In this document: piece after piece, positions 32,608 through 42,866 of the stretch | How positions within the stretch are numbered: the first letter of the stretch is position 1 | Layout of the letters: each line of letters starts with the position of its first letter | Assembly (NCBI GenBank): GCA_040903985.1 | Contig: JBBDUI010000002.1 | Coordinates: forward strand, 198,038-262,037 | Reading direction: 5' to 3' | Source of the DNA: Candidatus Saccharimonadales bacterium | GTDB taxonomy: Bacteria; Patescibacteriota; Saccharimonadia; QS-5-54-17 | Length of the DNA stretch: 64,000 nucleotides | Notes under the pieces: model-generated | Seen by the model: the letters and a program-made list of their open reading frames with translations, nothing else | Databases searched by the model: none | What the model was told of the DNA's origin: nothing | Position numbers and translations under genes: made by a program

Positions 32608-34980
32608 ACCTTAGGACGGTTATAGTTACCGCCGCCGTTTACTGGGGCTTCAGTTCAGAGCTTGCACTCGTTCCCTTAACCTTCCAGCACTGGGCAGGCG
32701 TCAGCCCGTATACATCCACTTTCGTGTTAGCACGGACCTGTGTTTTTAGTAAACAGTCGCTTGAGTTCTTTTACTGCGGCCCTACACCCTAAAAGGGTGC
32801 GGGGCAGGCCTTATCCCGAAGTTACGGCCGTTATTTTGCCGAGTTCCTTAACGAAGGTTCTCTCGTACACCTTGGTCTACTCGACCTGAGCACCTGTGTT
32901 GGTTTGCGGTACGGTTAGCTATGTTTATACGTATCGCGTCTTTTCCGGTCGGTTTGGCTTGCGCAACTCTCCCGTAATCGGGATCGCATTCGTGCTTCAC
33001 CTCCACAAAAGTGGAAACTAGACACTTAGACAGTTATAGCCAAAAAACTGCTTGCGCTACCATACCGCACAACGCGATACAACAACATCACTAGTACGGG
33101 AATATTAACCCGTTGTCCATCGCCTACGCACTACGCCTGGGCTTAGGACCGACTAACCCTGAGATGATTACCATGGCTCAGGAAACCTTGCTCTTTCGGT
33201 GGAAAAGATTCTCACTTTTCTTATGGCTACTAATTCCAGCATTCTCACTTCCTTGCGCTCCAGCTGGCCTTCCGGCTCACCTTCAACGCTGCAAGGAACG
33301 CTCCTCTACCACTCCAGTATGAGACAAAACCTACGGTTTCATCTCAAGTTCACTTACGTTCACTGCTCTTTTTCCCTGATAGTGTATTTCACTTCGAATT
33401 TATGCGAAAATTATTCGTTCATATCTTAATCAGAAATCAATAAGCACAACTATAAGCTTAGTCTCATACTAGAGTCCGCGATTTCGGTACCAAACTTAGC
33501 CCCGTTACATTTTCCGCGCAGAATCACAATCGATTAGTGAGCTGTTACGCACTCTTTAAATGAATGGCTGCTTCTAAGCCAACATCCTAATTGTCTTTGC
33601 GACTCTACCTCGTTTCCCACTTAGTTTGGATTTAGGGACCTTAATCGGCGGTCTGGGCTGTTTCCCTTTCGAGCGCGGAGCTTAGCCCCCGCGTTCTAAC
33701 TGCTGTGCTTCCACGATCGGTATTCGTAGTTTGACAGGGATGGATACGGTTGCCCGCTCCAGACCCAATCAGAGCTCTACCTCCAACTGCTACCACACAA
33801 CGCTAGCCCTAAAGCTATTTCGAGGAGAACCAGCTATCTCCAGGTTCGATTAGCATTTCACCGCTATCCACAGGTCATCCAAACACGTTGCATTGTGTCC
33901 TGGTGCGGCCCTCCACGAACTGTTACGTCCGCTTCAGCCTGCCCATGGATAGGTCACCTGGTTTCGGGTCTACTTCATAAAACTAATTTCGCCCTATTAA
34001 GGCTCGCTTTCACTACGCCTACTCCGCTTATGCGGATTAAGCTAGCTTTATAAAGTAACTCGCTGGATCGTTCTACAAAAAGCACGCCGTCACCCCGATA
34101 AATCGGAGCTCCGACTCCTTGTAGGCACACAGTTTCAGGTCTATTTCACTCCCCTTACGGGGTTCTTTTCACCTTTCCCTCACGGTACTTGTTCACTATC
34201 GATCATACATCATATTTAGTCTTGGAAGGTGGACCTCCCAGATTCAGTCAGAGTTTCACGTGTTCCGACCTACTCGAGATAAAAAACATAAGGTTGCTAC
34301 GTTTTCGGATACGAGGCTTTCACTCTCTTTGGCAGTCCTTTCCAGAACTTTCTCCTAACCCAGCAATTTGTAACCTTACAGATCTATGACAGTCGATCTT
34401 CATCTCGATATCATCTCTAGCGATAACTATTTATCAACCAGAGATGATATCGAGAGTCGTCTAATATCTCACAACCCGATACAAGTATTCGCCTGTCAGC
34501 TTATTCGTGTAAGTTAATACTCGAAAACTTATATCGTTTAGACTGTTTCCCTTTCGCTCGCCACTACTGAGGAAATCGCATATGCTTTCTATTCCACCGG
34601 GTACTAAGATGTTTCAGTTCCCCAGGTTCCCTCGCACTATCCTATATATTCAGATAGCGGTGACTCTGTATTACCAGAGCCGGGTTTCCCCATTCGGACA
34701 CCCCCGGATTATAGCTCGTTTGGCAGCTCCCCGAGGCTTATCGCAGCCTACTACGTCCTTCGTCGGTGAATGTATGTCAAGGCATCCGCTGTGCGCCCTT
34801 TCTCGTCTTTTGCATTACCAAGAACTGTTGAAGTTCTTGGATTTCACACCAACTTAATTAGCAAATAGTACAGCTATTTGCTAAATGTTTGTTAACGTTC
34901 TAAGCTCCCTAAAAATGCAAAGCCTAAATGACTGCTGACCCCTATAATCGGCAATCACTTAAGCTCATAGCGCAAGCTGG

Positions 34981-35010
34981 ATTGTATCACAGGAAAATAA
35001 CGCCTGTAAA
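34981..35010 (-). promoter_or_regulatory. candidate sigma70-type promoter for 23S-5S transcription
   Basis: On the minus strand: TTTACA, an 18-nt spacer, then TACAAT. This sits about 150 nt upstream of the 23S 5' end and immediately downstream of the NOX-like gene stop. Confidence 0.5.
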
Positions 35011-35077
35011 TACCTCTGATACTTTGGTTTTTATCTTTCCCCTCATTATAGAGTGGATAGCCCTAGCCGTCCAGTAG

Positions 35078-36394
35078 CTAGAAAGAGAACTCTTCGTAGT
35101 GCAGACGATCCTCGTCGATTCCAGCAGCAACGAACTGCTTACGCAGACCGTTTAACATCGGTGGTGGACCACAGATAAAGATAGCGGCGGCCTGGATGTC
35201 CGCTCGCTGCTGTAGCAACTCTAAATTCATGAATCCCTCCCGCTCCTCACAGATGTGGTGCATTCGAAAGCCGGCATGGCGCTTAGCCACTGCGGTTAGC
35301 TCCGTATGAAATAAGGCGTCGGTGTCTGACTTAGTACAGTAGAAGAAGTCGATATCGTACCGCAGCTTATCCGGAAAACTCCGCACCATACTGAGGAACG
35401 GCGTGATACCGATGCCACCGGCGATCCAGATCTGACGACGACTAGTTGAGTTGAGATAACTAAAATTGCCATATGGGCCGTCGACAATAGCTCGGACGCC
35501 AGGATGCACCTCCCCGATCTTAGCCGTGTAATCCCCCAAATTTTTAACGACGAAGCCAAGCTGACGATCGTGACGGCTCGAGCTAAAGGAGAACGGATGC
35601 GCCTCTCGTTGTACCGCAGCATCCCGCATACTCAAGTAGCCGAACTGACCCGGTCGAAAACTGACCGGATGCCAGCTCGGCTGCAGAATAATCTCAGTGA
35701 TGTCTTCCCCCAGATGGTTAACCGCCTCTACCCGGTAAGGGTACTTTTTAGTTAACCATTCTCCCAGAACCGAATGATACAGATAACTGAGAGCACCGAT
35801 GAATGTCACGATCAGCATATACCGCCGTAAAGCCGGGTTATCCAGAAGATGACCGCTAGCTAGGAAGGTGTGCAGGGCGGCCGGTACCAACAACAGCCCC
35901 AGTAAACGGTGAACCGTCAAAAAGGTTTGATATGGTAGTTTATACAACACTGTCGCTGTTAAGAGAGCGGCCATGCCCAAGAAAGCGATTACTCCCCATG
36001 TAACCACCGCGTCGACCCCCGGTACCCACATTCGCAGTGCTCCCAGTGGAGCGCTCATAGCGATAGCCGCTGTGATCGCTACAGCGTGTACGGCAATGGC
36101 GATAAAGCTATAGCTACCAAAGATACGATGTGCCTTATAGGCCTTATCTAAACCAAGAAAGAGCTTATCAATCGATTTCAGTCGCGCCCCCAACACCAAC
36201 GACCACATAAAGCTAGCGAAACCGGTAAATGCCCCCACTTTAGCCACGACAGTTAAGCCATGGCGGAGAGTTGACACCTCACCGATTAGCTCGGGCAGCC
36301 TAAGCCACAGGTAAAGCGGTATGATAAGGGCGACGCTCAGACTGACACTCCAGCCCAGGCTACGTCGCAATCGATTCCGTATATCTTCTCTCAT
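35078..36394 (-). CDS. ferric reductase/NADPH-oxidase-like (NOX/FRE family) flavocytochrome: 6-TM ferric-reductase domain fused to FAD- and NAD(P)H-binding domains
   Basis: His-containing TM helices, an FAD-binding HPFSFSS motif, NADPH-binding GGIGITPF, and CGPPPM. Confidence 0.7.
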   Translation of the reverse strand: MREDIRNRLRRSLGWSVSLSVALIIPLYLWLRLPELIGEVSTLRHGLTVVAKVGAFTGFASFMWSLVLGARLKSIDKLFLGLDKAYKAHRIFGSYSFIAIAVHAVAITAAIAMSAPLGALRMWVPGVDAVVTWGVIAFLGMAALLTATVLYKLPYQTFLTVHRLLGLLLVPAALHTFLASGHLLDNPALRRYMLIVTFIGALSYLYHSVLGEWLTKKYPYRVEAVNHLGEDITEIILQPSWHPVSFRPGQFGYLSMRDAAVQREAHPFSFSSSRHDRQLGFVVKNLGDYTAKIGEVHPGVRAIVDGPYGNFSYLNSTSRRQIWIAGGIGITPFLSMVRSFPDKLRYDIDFFYCTKSDTDALFHTELTAVAKRHAGFRMHHICEEREGFMNLELLQQRADIQAAAIFICGPPPMLNGLRKQFVAAGIDEDRLHYEEFSF

Positions 36395-42445: not shown

Positions 42446-42704
42446 GCTAAGCTCGAGATCACCTTGCGGTTCACTCGGCCACTTAGCTTATTGAATTTGA
42501 TTGCTCAAAAACTAACTAACATTGTTTTTTGTAACGTACAAATGTAAAAACGTTTGTCTCGATGTCACCACCGAGACGGAATTGATCCCCGATAAAATCG
42601 GGGAAAAACGGTTATACTGCACAGTCTAAATTCTTAAAGTACCTCACGTAGTGATAAAAAAAGCTCCCTAAACTCGGGCGCTTGCTCACAAACGTACAAA
42701 TTCT

Positions 42705-42734
42705 ATAATAATCGAGCGGCATAGACAGTGTCAA
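42705..42734 (-). promoter_or_regulatory. strong sigma70-type promoter for 16S rRNA
   Basis: On the minus strand: TTGACA, an 18-nt spacer, then TATTAT. This sits about 255 nt upstream of the mature 16S 5' end. Confidence 0.6.
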
Positions 42735-42866
42735 CCCCAGCTATAAGTTATACTAACTAGAAATAACAACCCCGGTTTTATAAACCAGCTGCTAGCCCCT
42801 ACTCCTCAGCCTTTAGCTAAATGGCTCACCTCGACGAGCGTAATCCTCTCTATTGGTCTCTACTAC

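Follow-up and report, generated by a model that had tools for sequence, protein, structure and literature searches.

Ribosomal RNA (rRNA) genes that have lost their close operonic linkage, as judged by a spacer of more than 1,500 bp, are widespread in bacteria and common in Patescibacteria (Brewer et al. 2020, bioRxiv 10.1101/705046). Among 34 circularized genomes of the Candidate Phyla Radiation (CPR), 27 carry unlinked rRNA genes, in classes that include spacers with transfer RNA (tRNA) genes, with protein-coding genes and with genes in opposite orientation; class D is defined by a distance above 2,000 bp and an intervening opposite-strand gene, a combination that makes a shared promoter implausible, and both Saccharimonadia genomes of that study were operonic (Lui et al. 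2021, PMC8172020). In the saccharibacterium Nanosynbacter lyticus TM7x, 16S and 23S are separated by pyrD and one hypothetical gene, so that the amplicon reaches 7,069 bp (PMC12424978), and the classical split operons listed by Lui et al. are those of Helicobacter, Borrelia, Buchnera, Wolbachia and Mycoplasma gallisepticum (PMC8172020). Here we describe the rRNA locus of a Candidatus Saccharimonadales bacterium, contained in a 64-kb window of contig JBBDUI010000002.1 (assembly GCA_040903985.1); the window is the whole stretch of DNA analysed, and all coordinates refer to it.

The host is a member of the CPR (Patescibacteria) represented by a metagenome-assembled genome of about 0.75 Mb, of which this is the single rRNA locus; the NOX protein of the window is 100% identical to one encoded in a Candidatus Saccharimonadales metagenome-assembled genome. 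With rRNA and tRNA genes placed by Rfam and ARAGORN, open reading frames (ORFs) assigned to families by Pfam, and phage families taken from PHROG, the order on the minus strand is 16S, tRNA-Ile(GAT), three ORFs, tRNA-Ala(TGC), a DUF502 gene on the plus strand, a gene for a 284-residue protein, a NOX/ferric-reductase-like gene, 23S and 5S (Table 1). The five RNA genes thus follow the order and shared strand of a canonical rrn operon, whose internal spacer would be a few hundred nucleotides long and hold the tRNA genes alone; here, 6,146 nt and six ORFs, five of them on the rRNA strand and DUF502 the exception, separate the end of 16S (40959) from the start of 23S (34812). Between the two tRNA genes, 2,074 nt accommodate start/stop-coupled ORFs of 442, 86 and 78 residues, and the 3,342 nt from tRNA-Ala to 23S hold DUF502, the 284-residue gene and the 438-residue NOX gene. 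A preliminary description of the window had reported the same minus-strand order, with about 1.9 kb and three ORFs between the tRNAs and about 3.3 kb between tRNA-Ala and 23S, and Rfam and ARAGORN bear it out, as Pfam does for its naming of an opposite-strand DUF502 gene, a (PE)n membrane protein and a NOX/ferric-reductase-like gene.

With this spacer the locus qualifies as unlinked in the sense of Brewer et al. and, owing to the plus-strand DUF502 gene between tRNA-Ala and 23S, belongs to class D of Lui et al. It resembles other unlinked CPR rRNA genes in its spacer, which far exceeds 1,500-2,000 nt and contains tRNAs together with protein genes (one in opposite orientation), and in the small genome with a single rRNA copy; unlike those cases, it keeps order and proximity, over 6 kb rather than hundreds of kilobases, and its NOX gene is conserved beside rRNA genes in relatives. 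TM7x, from the same phylum, shows the same kind of interruption, and no NOX homolog named TM7x was among the matches listed for searches seeded with the NOX proteins of the window and of a distant relative, L018. With the classical split operons the locus shares a 16S transcribed apart from 23S-5S (here a prediction), a small genome and one or few rRNA copies, whereas their genes are usually far apart or rearranged and this locus retains the gene order, the common strand and both spacer tRNAs. As a well-documented case, it joins the split rRNA operons already described in this bacterial group and does not constitute a new kind of system; what goes beyond the published accounts consulted is the conserved linkage of NOX with rRNA genes, a candidate consensus for the 23S promoter and a locus history in two layers. 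Comparative sequence evidence makes it likely, in our judgement, that an ancestral 16S-tRNA-Ile-tRNA-Ala-23S-5S operon has kept its gene order while being broken into separate transcription units, through an old and a more recent layer of change.

Support for an independent 23S-5S unit comes from the region 5′ of 23S, which we compared among relatives gathered by using NOX homologs as handles (L-numbers denote contigs or loci of relatives or of other assemblies). The promoter-like motif TTTACA-N14/15-TGNTANNNT, with the extended −10 pattern TG-N-TA-NNN-T, precedes 23S in six lineages (the window, L008, L010, L031, L154 and L155) and, as a variant, appears in L007; the copy 5′ of 23S is the only one in the 64-kb window, and a further 3.9 Mb or so of retrieved sequence contained only 4 unrelated matches. 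L031, the closest relative (16S 91% identical, 23S 86-89%), matches the window copy base for base. Because that copy has been kept although NOX there points away from 23S, the element would belong to 23S and not to NOX, and 23S would require a promoter of its own in that genome. The element is followed downstream by a block that resembles boxA and is conserved, by a hairpin and by the leader arm of the 23S processing helix. The boxA version in L008, GCTCTTTGACAA, is close to the boxA of Escherichia coli. The unit closes with a canonical intrinsic terminator after 5S; upstream, the window has no predicted terminator in the stretch from NOX to 23S. An origin of the 23S leader by duplication of the 16S leader was also considered and rejected: the two leaders share the 12-mer TTTAGGGAGCTT, but with a score of 24 this match falls below the best one among shuffled sequences (27) and lacks significance.

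The 16S gene has flanking signals of its own. The candidate promoter lies upstream of the 16S leader arm, as its position as a promoter requires, and a comparable site, TTGACA-17-TACAAT, lies about equally far from 16S in the distant relative L159. A terminator-like hairpin follows the 16S trailer, and L031 and L018 carry terminator-like hairpins at the equivalent place. Further along, a bidirectional terminator-like hairpin with an A-tract, a GC stem and a T-tract overlaps the 3′ end of tRNA-Ala, and the DUF502 gene converges on it. Its module (38095-38163) is almost identical to the one that follows a stand-alone tRNA-Ala(GGC) gene in the same genome (L006 19035-19095), including a conserved tail that ends in GAGAACCG; the module is present twice in L031, once after tRNA-Ala, and L018 shows the same architecture. 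The predicted terminator thus behaves like a real bidirectional one.

The NOX gene is the part of the spacer that can be followed furthest among relatives. Its product carries the Ferric_reduct transmembrane domain followed by the FAD- and NAD(P)H-binding domains, and of its transmembrane histidines, which may serve as ligands of two haems, H89, H103 and H175 show no variation among 18 homologs and H162 almost none. In L008/L009, L010, L154 and L155, NOX lies immediately 5′ of 23S on the same strand and is 42-45% identical to the protein of the window, and in L156/L157 the two genes are 1.8 kb apart, NOX being the upstream one. In the NOX tree, all these proteins fall into one clade with that of the window and with L007, whose contig stops before any 23S. 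In place of 16S, the position upstream of the NOX-23S pair is taken by guaA on the opposite strand in L008 and L154 and by a gene resembling the major facilitator superfamily (MFS) in L010. L031 has the order 16S, tRNA-Ile, tRNA-Ala, a homolog of the 284-residue protein, inverted NOX, 23S and 5S; its NOX is both inverted and the most divergent, and its homolog of the 284-residue protein, at the same position, has 272 residues and is 43-51% identical in the Ig domain. In the distant Saccharibacteria L018 and L159 (16S about 80% identical), NOX is found a few kilobases downstream of 16S, tRNA-Ile and tRNA-Ala, with the two tRNA genes inverted in L159, and no 23S lies within the next 5-9 kb. A scan of metagenome contigs with a 7-sequence NOX alignment found no rRNA-linked loci; a scan of genome contigs with an 18-sequence alignment, reduced to one generic peptide pattern, gave only distant homologs (at most 37% identity) among the matches listed, and from it came L018 and L031.

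As NOX stands beside rRNA genes across relatives whose 16S identity ranges from about 80 to 91%, the linkage is old. The composition of the gene looks native, and NOX has the appearance of an old resident, as does the 284-residue protein, likewise present in L031. The points at which the locus broke evidently differ between lineages, with everything still together in the window and L031. A 36-nt perfect palindrome sits between the 284-residue gene and NOX, and its half-site is found again within the spacer of the 23S promoter; NOX is also bracketed by an inverted repeat of 30 nt with 23/30 matches (34978-35007 and 36435-36464). These repeats may represent an operator or an inversion scar, the latter being speculative for the 30-nt repeat, and neither equivalents of them nor comparable inverted repeats that could serve as inversion substrate around NOX were found in the relatives.

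The DNA between the two tRNA genes has a different distribution. Their spacing is 134 nt in L031, 233 nt in L018 and 2,074 nt in the window, the 442-residue ORF is absent between the tRNAs of L031 and L018, and the three cassette ORFs and DUF502 were found in the window lineage only, among the relatives compared; DUF502 was not found at this position in any of them. The 442-residue ORF has a paralog elsewhere in the genome (P0121, Gly_rich_2), to which it is 71% identical in amino acids and 81-88% in nucleotides over the first 885 nt from the start codon. The neighbourhood of that paralog (L006 2186-9748) includes an MmeI-type restriction-modification gene, HARE-HTH, DUF2779 and DUF8370/8371, and looks like a defence island. 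The 78-residue ORF, which aligns to positions 123-178 of the 178 in the Lipase_GDSL_2 profile, is by this alignment a truncated remnant, the C-terminal third of an SGNH/GDSL hydrolase domain.

The same interval carries traces of tRNA turnover. The intact tRNA-Ile has a GGGGCTG acceptor arm like that of L018 and lies within a 22-nt inverted repeat (40295-40316 and 40377-40398), and around it are two 5′ halves and one 3′ half of an older tRNA-Ile. The 5′ relic nearer to the intact gene hardly differs from the corresponding half of the tRNA-Ile of L031, and both have the GGGCGAT acceptor arm. An L031-like relic next to an intact gene with a different acceptor stem indicates that the resident tRNA-Ile was probably replaced by another copy through recombination in the conserved core. 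A split or intron-containing tRNA-Ile was considered and rejected, since the halves lack a matching acceptor stem (5/7 pairs) and the intact tRNA-Ile lies between them. Separately, the 3′ end of tRNA-Ala is duplicated in L018 (about 1683-1699) and in L031 (about 11815-11880, there with the terminator module); the extra copies lie 150-300 nt downstream of the gene and look like att-type scars. From these comparisons the cassette between the two tRNAs is evidently recent, and the spacer tRNA genes have evidently served as recombination sites.

A history consistent with these observations would begin with a NOX-like gene entering between tRNA-Ala and 23S and being joined later by the PE-repeat Ig protein; in this old layer, NOX would have stayed with 23S-5S in some lineages, with 16S and the tRNAs in others, and with both in the window and L031. 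The recent layer, after the split from L031, would have added about 1.9 kb between the tRNAs, made up of one small ORF, the truncated SGNH remnant and a duplicated gene of surface or tail-fibre-like type; it would also include the replacement of the resident tRNA-Ile, whose remains are the half-genes that break off in the anticodon loop, and the lineage-specific DUF502.

For the present locus we infer at least three transcription units: 16S; the tRNAs with the cassette; and 23S-5S, with the 284-residue and NOX genes. The 16S promoter (42734-42705) would drive leader, 16S and trailer, with transcription ending or being attenuated at the hairpin 40680-40647. A second unit of tRNA-Ile, the three-ORF cassette and tRNA-Ala would stop at the bidirectional terminator (38163-38111), which the convergent DUF502 gene would use as well. 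The 284-residue gene and NOX would be transcribed from their own promoter-like site, and with no terminator predicted ahead of 23S their transcripts probably continue into that gene. 23S-5S itself would be transcribed mainly from the conserved extended −10 promoter, with a boxA-like element, its own processing helix and the terminator after 5S. The preliminary description had pointed to the promoter pairs TTGACA-18-TATTAT (42734..42705) and TTTACA-18-TACAAT (35010..34981) and had proposed that 16S and 23S-5S are transcribed independently. Both pairs exist, and the proposal, still a prediction, gains support from the 23S promoter in six lineages, the orientation of NOX in L031, guaA or the MFS-like gene upstream in relatives, the hairpins and the separate processing helices.

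Several points weigh against this reading. All promoters, terminators and unit boundaries are predictions, and a generic sigma-70 hexamer scan of 30000-43500 revealed no excess of promoter-like sites in the region (18 against 15.2 ± 3.3 in shuffled sequence); hexamers alone are therefore no proof, and the 23S site gains weight only by its conservation. No relative with a 5′ flank of 16S was recovered against which the 16S promoter candidate could be compared, and the U-tract of the hairpin after the 16S trailer is weak. Further, a hairpin with a T-run lies between the promoter-like element and boxA in L010 (2017-2044), L008 (2368-2389) and the 23S leaders of L154 and L155, and is not present in the window, L031 or L007. 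This is awkward for a simple promoter: the hairpin may be an attenuator of the rrn leader, or it may be a NOX terminator with the true promoter elsewhere. As rRNA antitermination complexes can pass intrinsic terminators, some read-through from 16S to 23S is possible. Finally, the 16S interior of one of the two assemblies of this population is mosaic, and the two are not fully independent because they derive from the same source population.

One alternative is that the locus is still one operon, with a transcript of about 12 kb running from the 16S promoter through the tRNAs, the five same-strand ORFs and 23S-5S under boxA-type antitermination, the RNAs being released by RNase III and RNase P, DUF502 being antisense and the 23S motif a minor or secondary promoter. 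The retained gene order, the five of six ORFs on the rRNA strand, the boxA-like elements and the missing terminator between NOX and 23S would all fit, and Lui et al. counted CPR operons with same-strand protein genes as operonic (PMC8172020). We nevertheless hold it to be unlikely: the −44.8 kcal/mol hairpin after tRNA-Ala is of a type that closes a stand-alone tRNA gene in the same genome and has DUF502 converging on it, and the 23S motif recurs in genomes that have no upstream 16S or an inverted NOX. The conserved 23S promoter and the terminator hairpins thus argue against a single primary 16S-23S-5S transcript. We place about as little weight on a further idea, that in a Saccharimonadales clade NOX is no neutral passenger but a conserved functional part of the large-subunit rRNA unit: by read-through into the 23S precursor or through a shared control region, its mRNA would be freed by the processing helix, its expression would depend on rRNA synthesis or on an attenuator in the leader (the hairpin with T-run of L008, L010, L154 and L155), and the ancient insertion of NOX would have seeded the operon breaks, at different points in different lineages. 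A different alternative takes the whole 6-kb interruption as recent foreign mobile DNA, with the spacer tRNAs as a landing pad for horizontal cargo. Among integrative elements targeted to tRNA genes, which are grouped by integrase sublocation, are those with crossover sites in the anticodon loop. The locus recalls them in its partial tRNAs broken in that loop, its lineage-specific cargo next to a tRNA, missing from L031 and L018, and the duplicated tRNA-Ala 3′ ends of relatives; the weak tail-fibre matches of the 442-residue ORF and a G+C maximum of 0.62 at 38500-39250 point the same way. It departs from them in that Pfam and PHROG scans matched no integrase, transposase or recombinase in the six spacer ORFs, that tRNA-Ile was replaced whole and is no hybrid, and that no tRNA 3′ direct repeats bracket the cargo as attL and attR would: the 3′ relic, 40 nt from the intact tRNA-Ile, lies upstream of the cassette without flanking it, and 38232-38304 holds no tRNA-like repeat. 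Moreover, the NOX-rRNA adjacency is conserved over deep divergence, with the NOX proteins directly before 23S in one clade, the G+C contents of NOX and of the 284- and 442-residue genes lie within the genome range (the only outliers being the 86-residue ORF in the spacer and the LAGLIDADG ORF in 23S), and the 442-residue gene is an intragenomic paralog. We consider a wholly foreign origin very unlikely, and for the part comprising NOX and the 284-residue gene these comparisons largely refute it. A prophage remnant as the source of the cassette was likewise rejected: the PHROG matches are weak, the viral matches of the 442-residue ORF come down to two loci cut from a single viral contig with 55 residues matched, and its best relative is the paralog of the same genome in a non-prophage context. 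The comparison with related genomes that the preliminary description had proposed therefore divides its notion of a landing pad for foreign genes: the cassette and DUF502 are lineage-specific and tRNA scars lie at the cassette, whereas NOX is old, native in composition and shared in its linkage, and the 442-residue gene is an intragenomic duplicate. With part of the cargo home-grown and the larger interruption ancient, the phrase was overstated.

The remaining alternative, an assembly artefact in which a 7.9-kb contig of another organism was scaffolded between the halves of 16S and 23S through conserved rRNA sequence, has some basis in the sister assembly GCA_040876815.1, where the segment is a separate 7,880-bp contig (L001) that starts inside 16S and ends inside 23S and the remaining genome is one 739-kb contig. 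L001 is 100% identical to the window over 41040..34069 (6.9 kb, the spacer and the 5′ end of 23S), and its first 990 nt differ from window 41040-41895 at 43 positions, all within 16S. Differences confined to 16S mean that one of the two 16S interiors published for the population is a metagenomic mosaic, so that some rRNA mosaicism does exist. The flanks, however, tie the segment to its surroundings. The cognate leader-trailer helices of 16S and 23S bridge exactly the points at which the two sister-assembly contigs meet, with duplex energies of −82 kcal/mol for 16S (−51 ± 5.6 in shuffles) and −49.9 for 23S (−22.6 ± 3.9), whereas cross-pairings of 16S flanks with 23S flanks are no better than shuffles. 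Close copies of the 442-residue gene and of the tRNA-Ala terminator module are found on the large contig of the same genome, Logan unitigs connect NOX with the first ~90 nt of 23S, and independent contigs repeat the neighbourhood, with 16S, tRNA-Ile, tRNA-Ala and NOX together in L031, L018 and L159 (the two tRNA genes inverted in L159) and NOX beside 23S in L008, L010, L154, L155 and L156. An artefact is thus extremely improbable; by these comparisons the layout is genuine, and the chimera that the preliminary description had foreseen as grounds for withdrawing its interpretation is not borne out, as helices bridge the joins and relatives share the layout.

Read in this way, as an ancestral operon broken into separate units, the locus would document, with comparative support, the stepwise dismantling of a canonical rRNA operon in a lineage of ultra-small episymbionts, in which an old protein-gene insertion gained or kept a dedicated 23S promoter and later events at the spacer tRNAs added DNA. 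It helps to explain why long amplicons across 16S, the internal transcribed spacer and 23S, as well as rRNA-based binning, leave such organisms missed or mis-joined; the two assemblies of this very population disagree in 16S. It also supplies a testable candidate consensus for rRNA promoters of Saccharimonadales, TTTACA-N17/18-TGnTAnnnT, and the NOX-23S linkage is open to study in cultured Saccharibacteria with existing transcriptomes.

Table 1 Features of the rRNA locus in window coordinates, from 16S to 5S in the direction of the minus strand
Feature	Position	Strand	Basis and remarks
Candidate 16S promoter, TTGACA-18-TATTAT	42705..42734	−	11/12 consensus matches
16S leader arm of processing helix	42610..42639	−	30-nt inverted repeat with 40686-40715, 87% complementary
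16S rRNA	40959..42443	−	Rfam RF00177, 1519.5 bits, full length
16S trailer arm of processing helix	40686..40715	−	pairs with 42610-42639
Terminator-like hairpin 3′ of 16S trailer	40647..40680	−	15-bp perfect stem, dG −27.3 kcal/mol, z −7.0, weak U-tract
Two relic 5′ halves of older tRNA-Ile	40492-40553 and 40415-40451	−	direct repeats, 67-nt spacing, both end in anticodon loop
tRNA-Ile(GAT), intact	40306..40383	−	Rfam, ARAGORN
Relic 3′ half of tRNA-Ile	40222..40262	−	begins in anticodon loop; 40 nt from intact tRNA-Ile
442-residue ORF	38801..40129	−	no Pfam match; weak PHROG tail-fibre matches, E ~5e-6; N-terminus weakly tail-fibre-like
86-residue ORF	38541..38801	−	no Pfam or PHROG family; G+C 0.63, third-position G+C (GC3) 0.77
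78-residue ORF	38305..38541	−	Lipase_GDSL_2 profile positions 123-178 of 178
tRNA-Ala(TGC)	38155..38231	−	Rfam, ARAGORN
Bidirectional terminator-like hairpin	38111..38163	both	overlaps tRNA-Ala 3′ end; dG −44.8 kcal/mol, z −9.7
DUF502 membrane protein	37473..38015	+	PF04367, E 3.5e-9; 180 residues in sister assembly; ORF extendable to TTG at 37401
Promoter-like TTGACA-18-TATAGT 5′ of 284-residue gene	37383..37412	−	11/12 matches
284-residue membrane protein	36473..37327	−	Pfam; Big_13 Ig-like domain between (PE)n repeats
36-nt perfect palindrome between 284-residue gene and NOX	36413..36448		half-site ACAGGCGTTAT also inside 23S promoter spacer
NOX/ferric-reductase-like flavocytochrome, 438 residues	35078..36394	−	Ferric_reduct PF01794, FAD_binding_8 PF08022, NAD_binding_1 PF00175, all above curated cut-offs
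Candidate 23S promoter, TTTACA-18-TGATACAAT	34981..35010	−	extended −10 (TACAAT with TG); aligned with L031 and L007 element
boxA-like element GAACGTTAACAAAC in 23S leader	34887..34900	−	conserved alignment block
23S leader arm of processing helix	34840..34884	−	pairs with 30726-30687; conserved in relatives
23S rRNA, 4,082 nt	30731..34812	−	Rfam
Putative group I intron in 23S, 774 nt	~31833-32607	−	absent from L010 and L031; LAGLIDADG_1 ORF 31966-32442, E 3.3e-24
23S trailer arm of processing helix	30687..30726	−	pairs with 23S leader arm
5S rRNA	30525..30632	−	Rfam RF00001, 91 bits
Canonical intrinsic terminator after 5S	30492..30516	−	10-bp stem and T-run; dG −21.6 kcal/mol, z −4.6

The 23S gene is itself interrupted. 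LAGLIDADG-bearing insertions and group I introns are routine in CPR 23S genes (Tsurumaki et al. 2024, PMC11270868; PMC11809585), and the 774-nt insertion, with its LAGLIDADG_1 ORF, its partial group I match and its absence from the 23S of relatives, is an ordinary example; its Intron_gpI score of 35.9 bits, against an Rfam gathering score of 50, supports the group I fold in part. Two smaller insertions accompany it, one of 147 nt (33323-33470) in the window only and one of 126 nt (31427-31553) common to L031. The intron with its LAGLIDADG ORF had been overlooked in the preliminary description, as had the pseudo-tRNA-Ile fragments, the terminator hairpins and the truncation of the 78-residue ORF. 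Weak Rfam matches to c-di-GMP-II and Plastid-ycf2, within 23S or antisense to tRNA-Ile, are spurious.

Outside the rRNA locus, its 5′ side on the minus strand is occupied by a 1,382-residue LVIVD-repeat/beta-propeller protein (42867-47015) and a collagen-repeat protein (46969-47664). Farther upstream lie gyrA and gyrB, and downstream of 5S the genes for ribosomal protein S1 and IF-2, a synteny common to L010.

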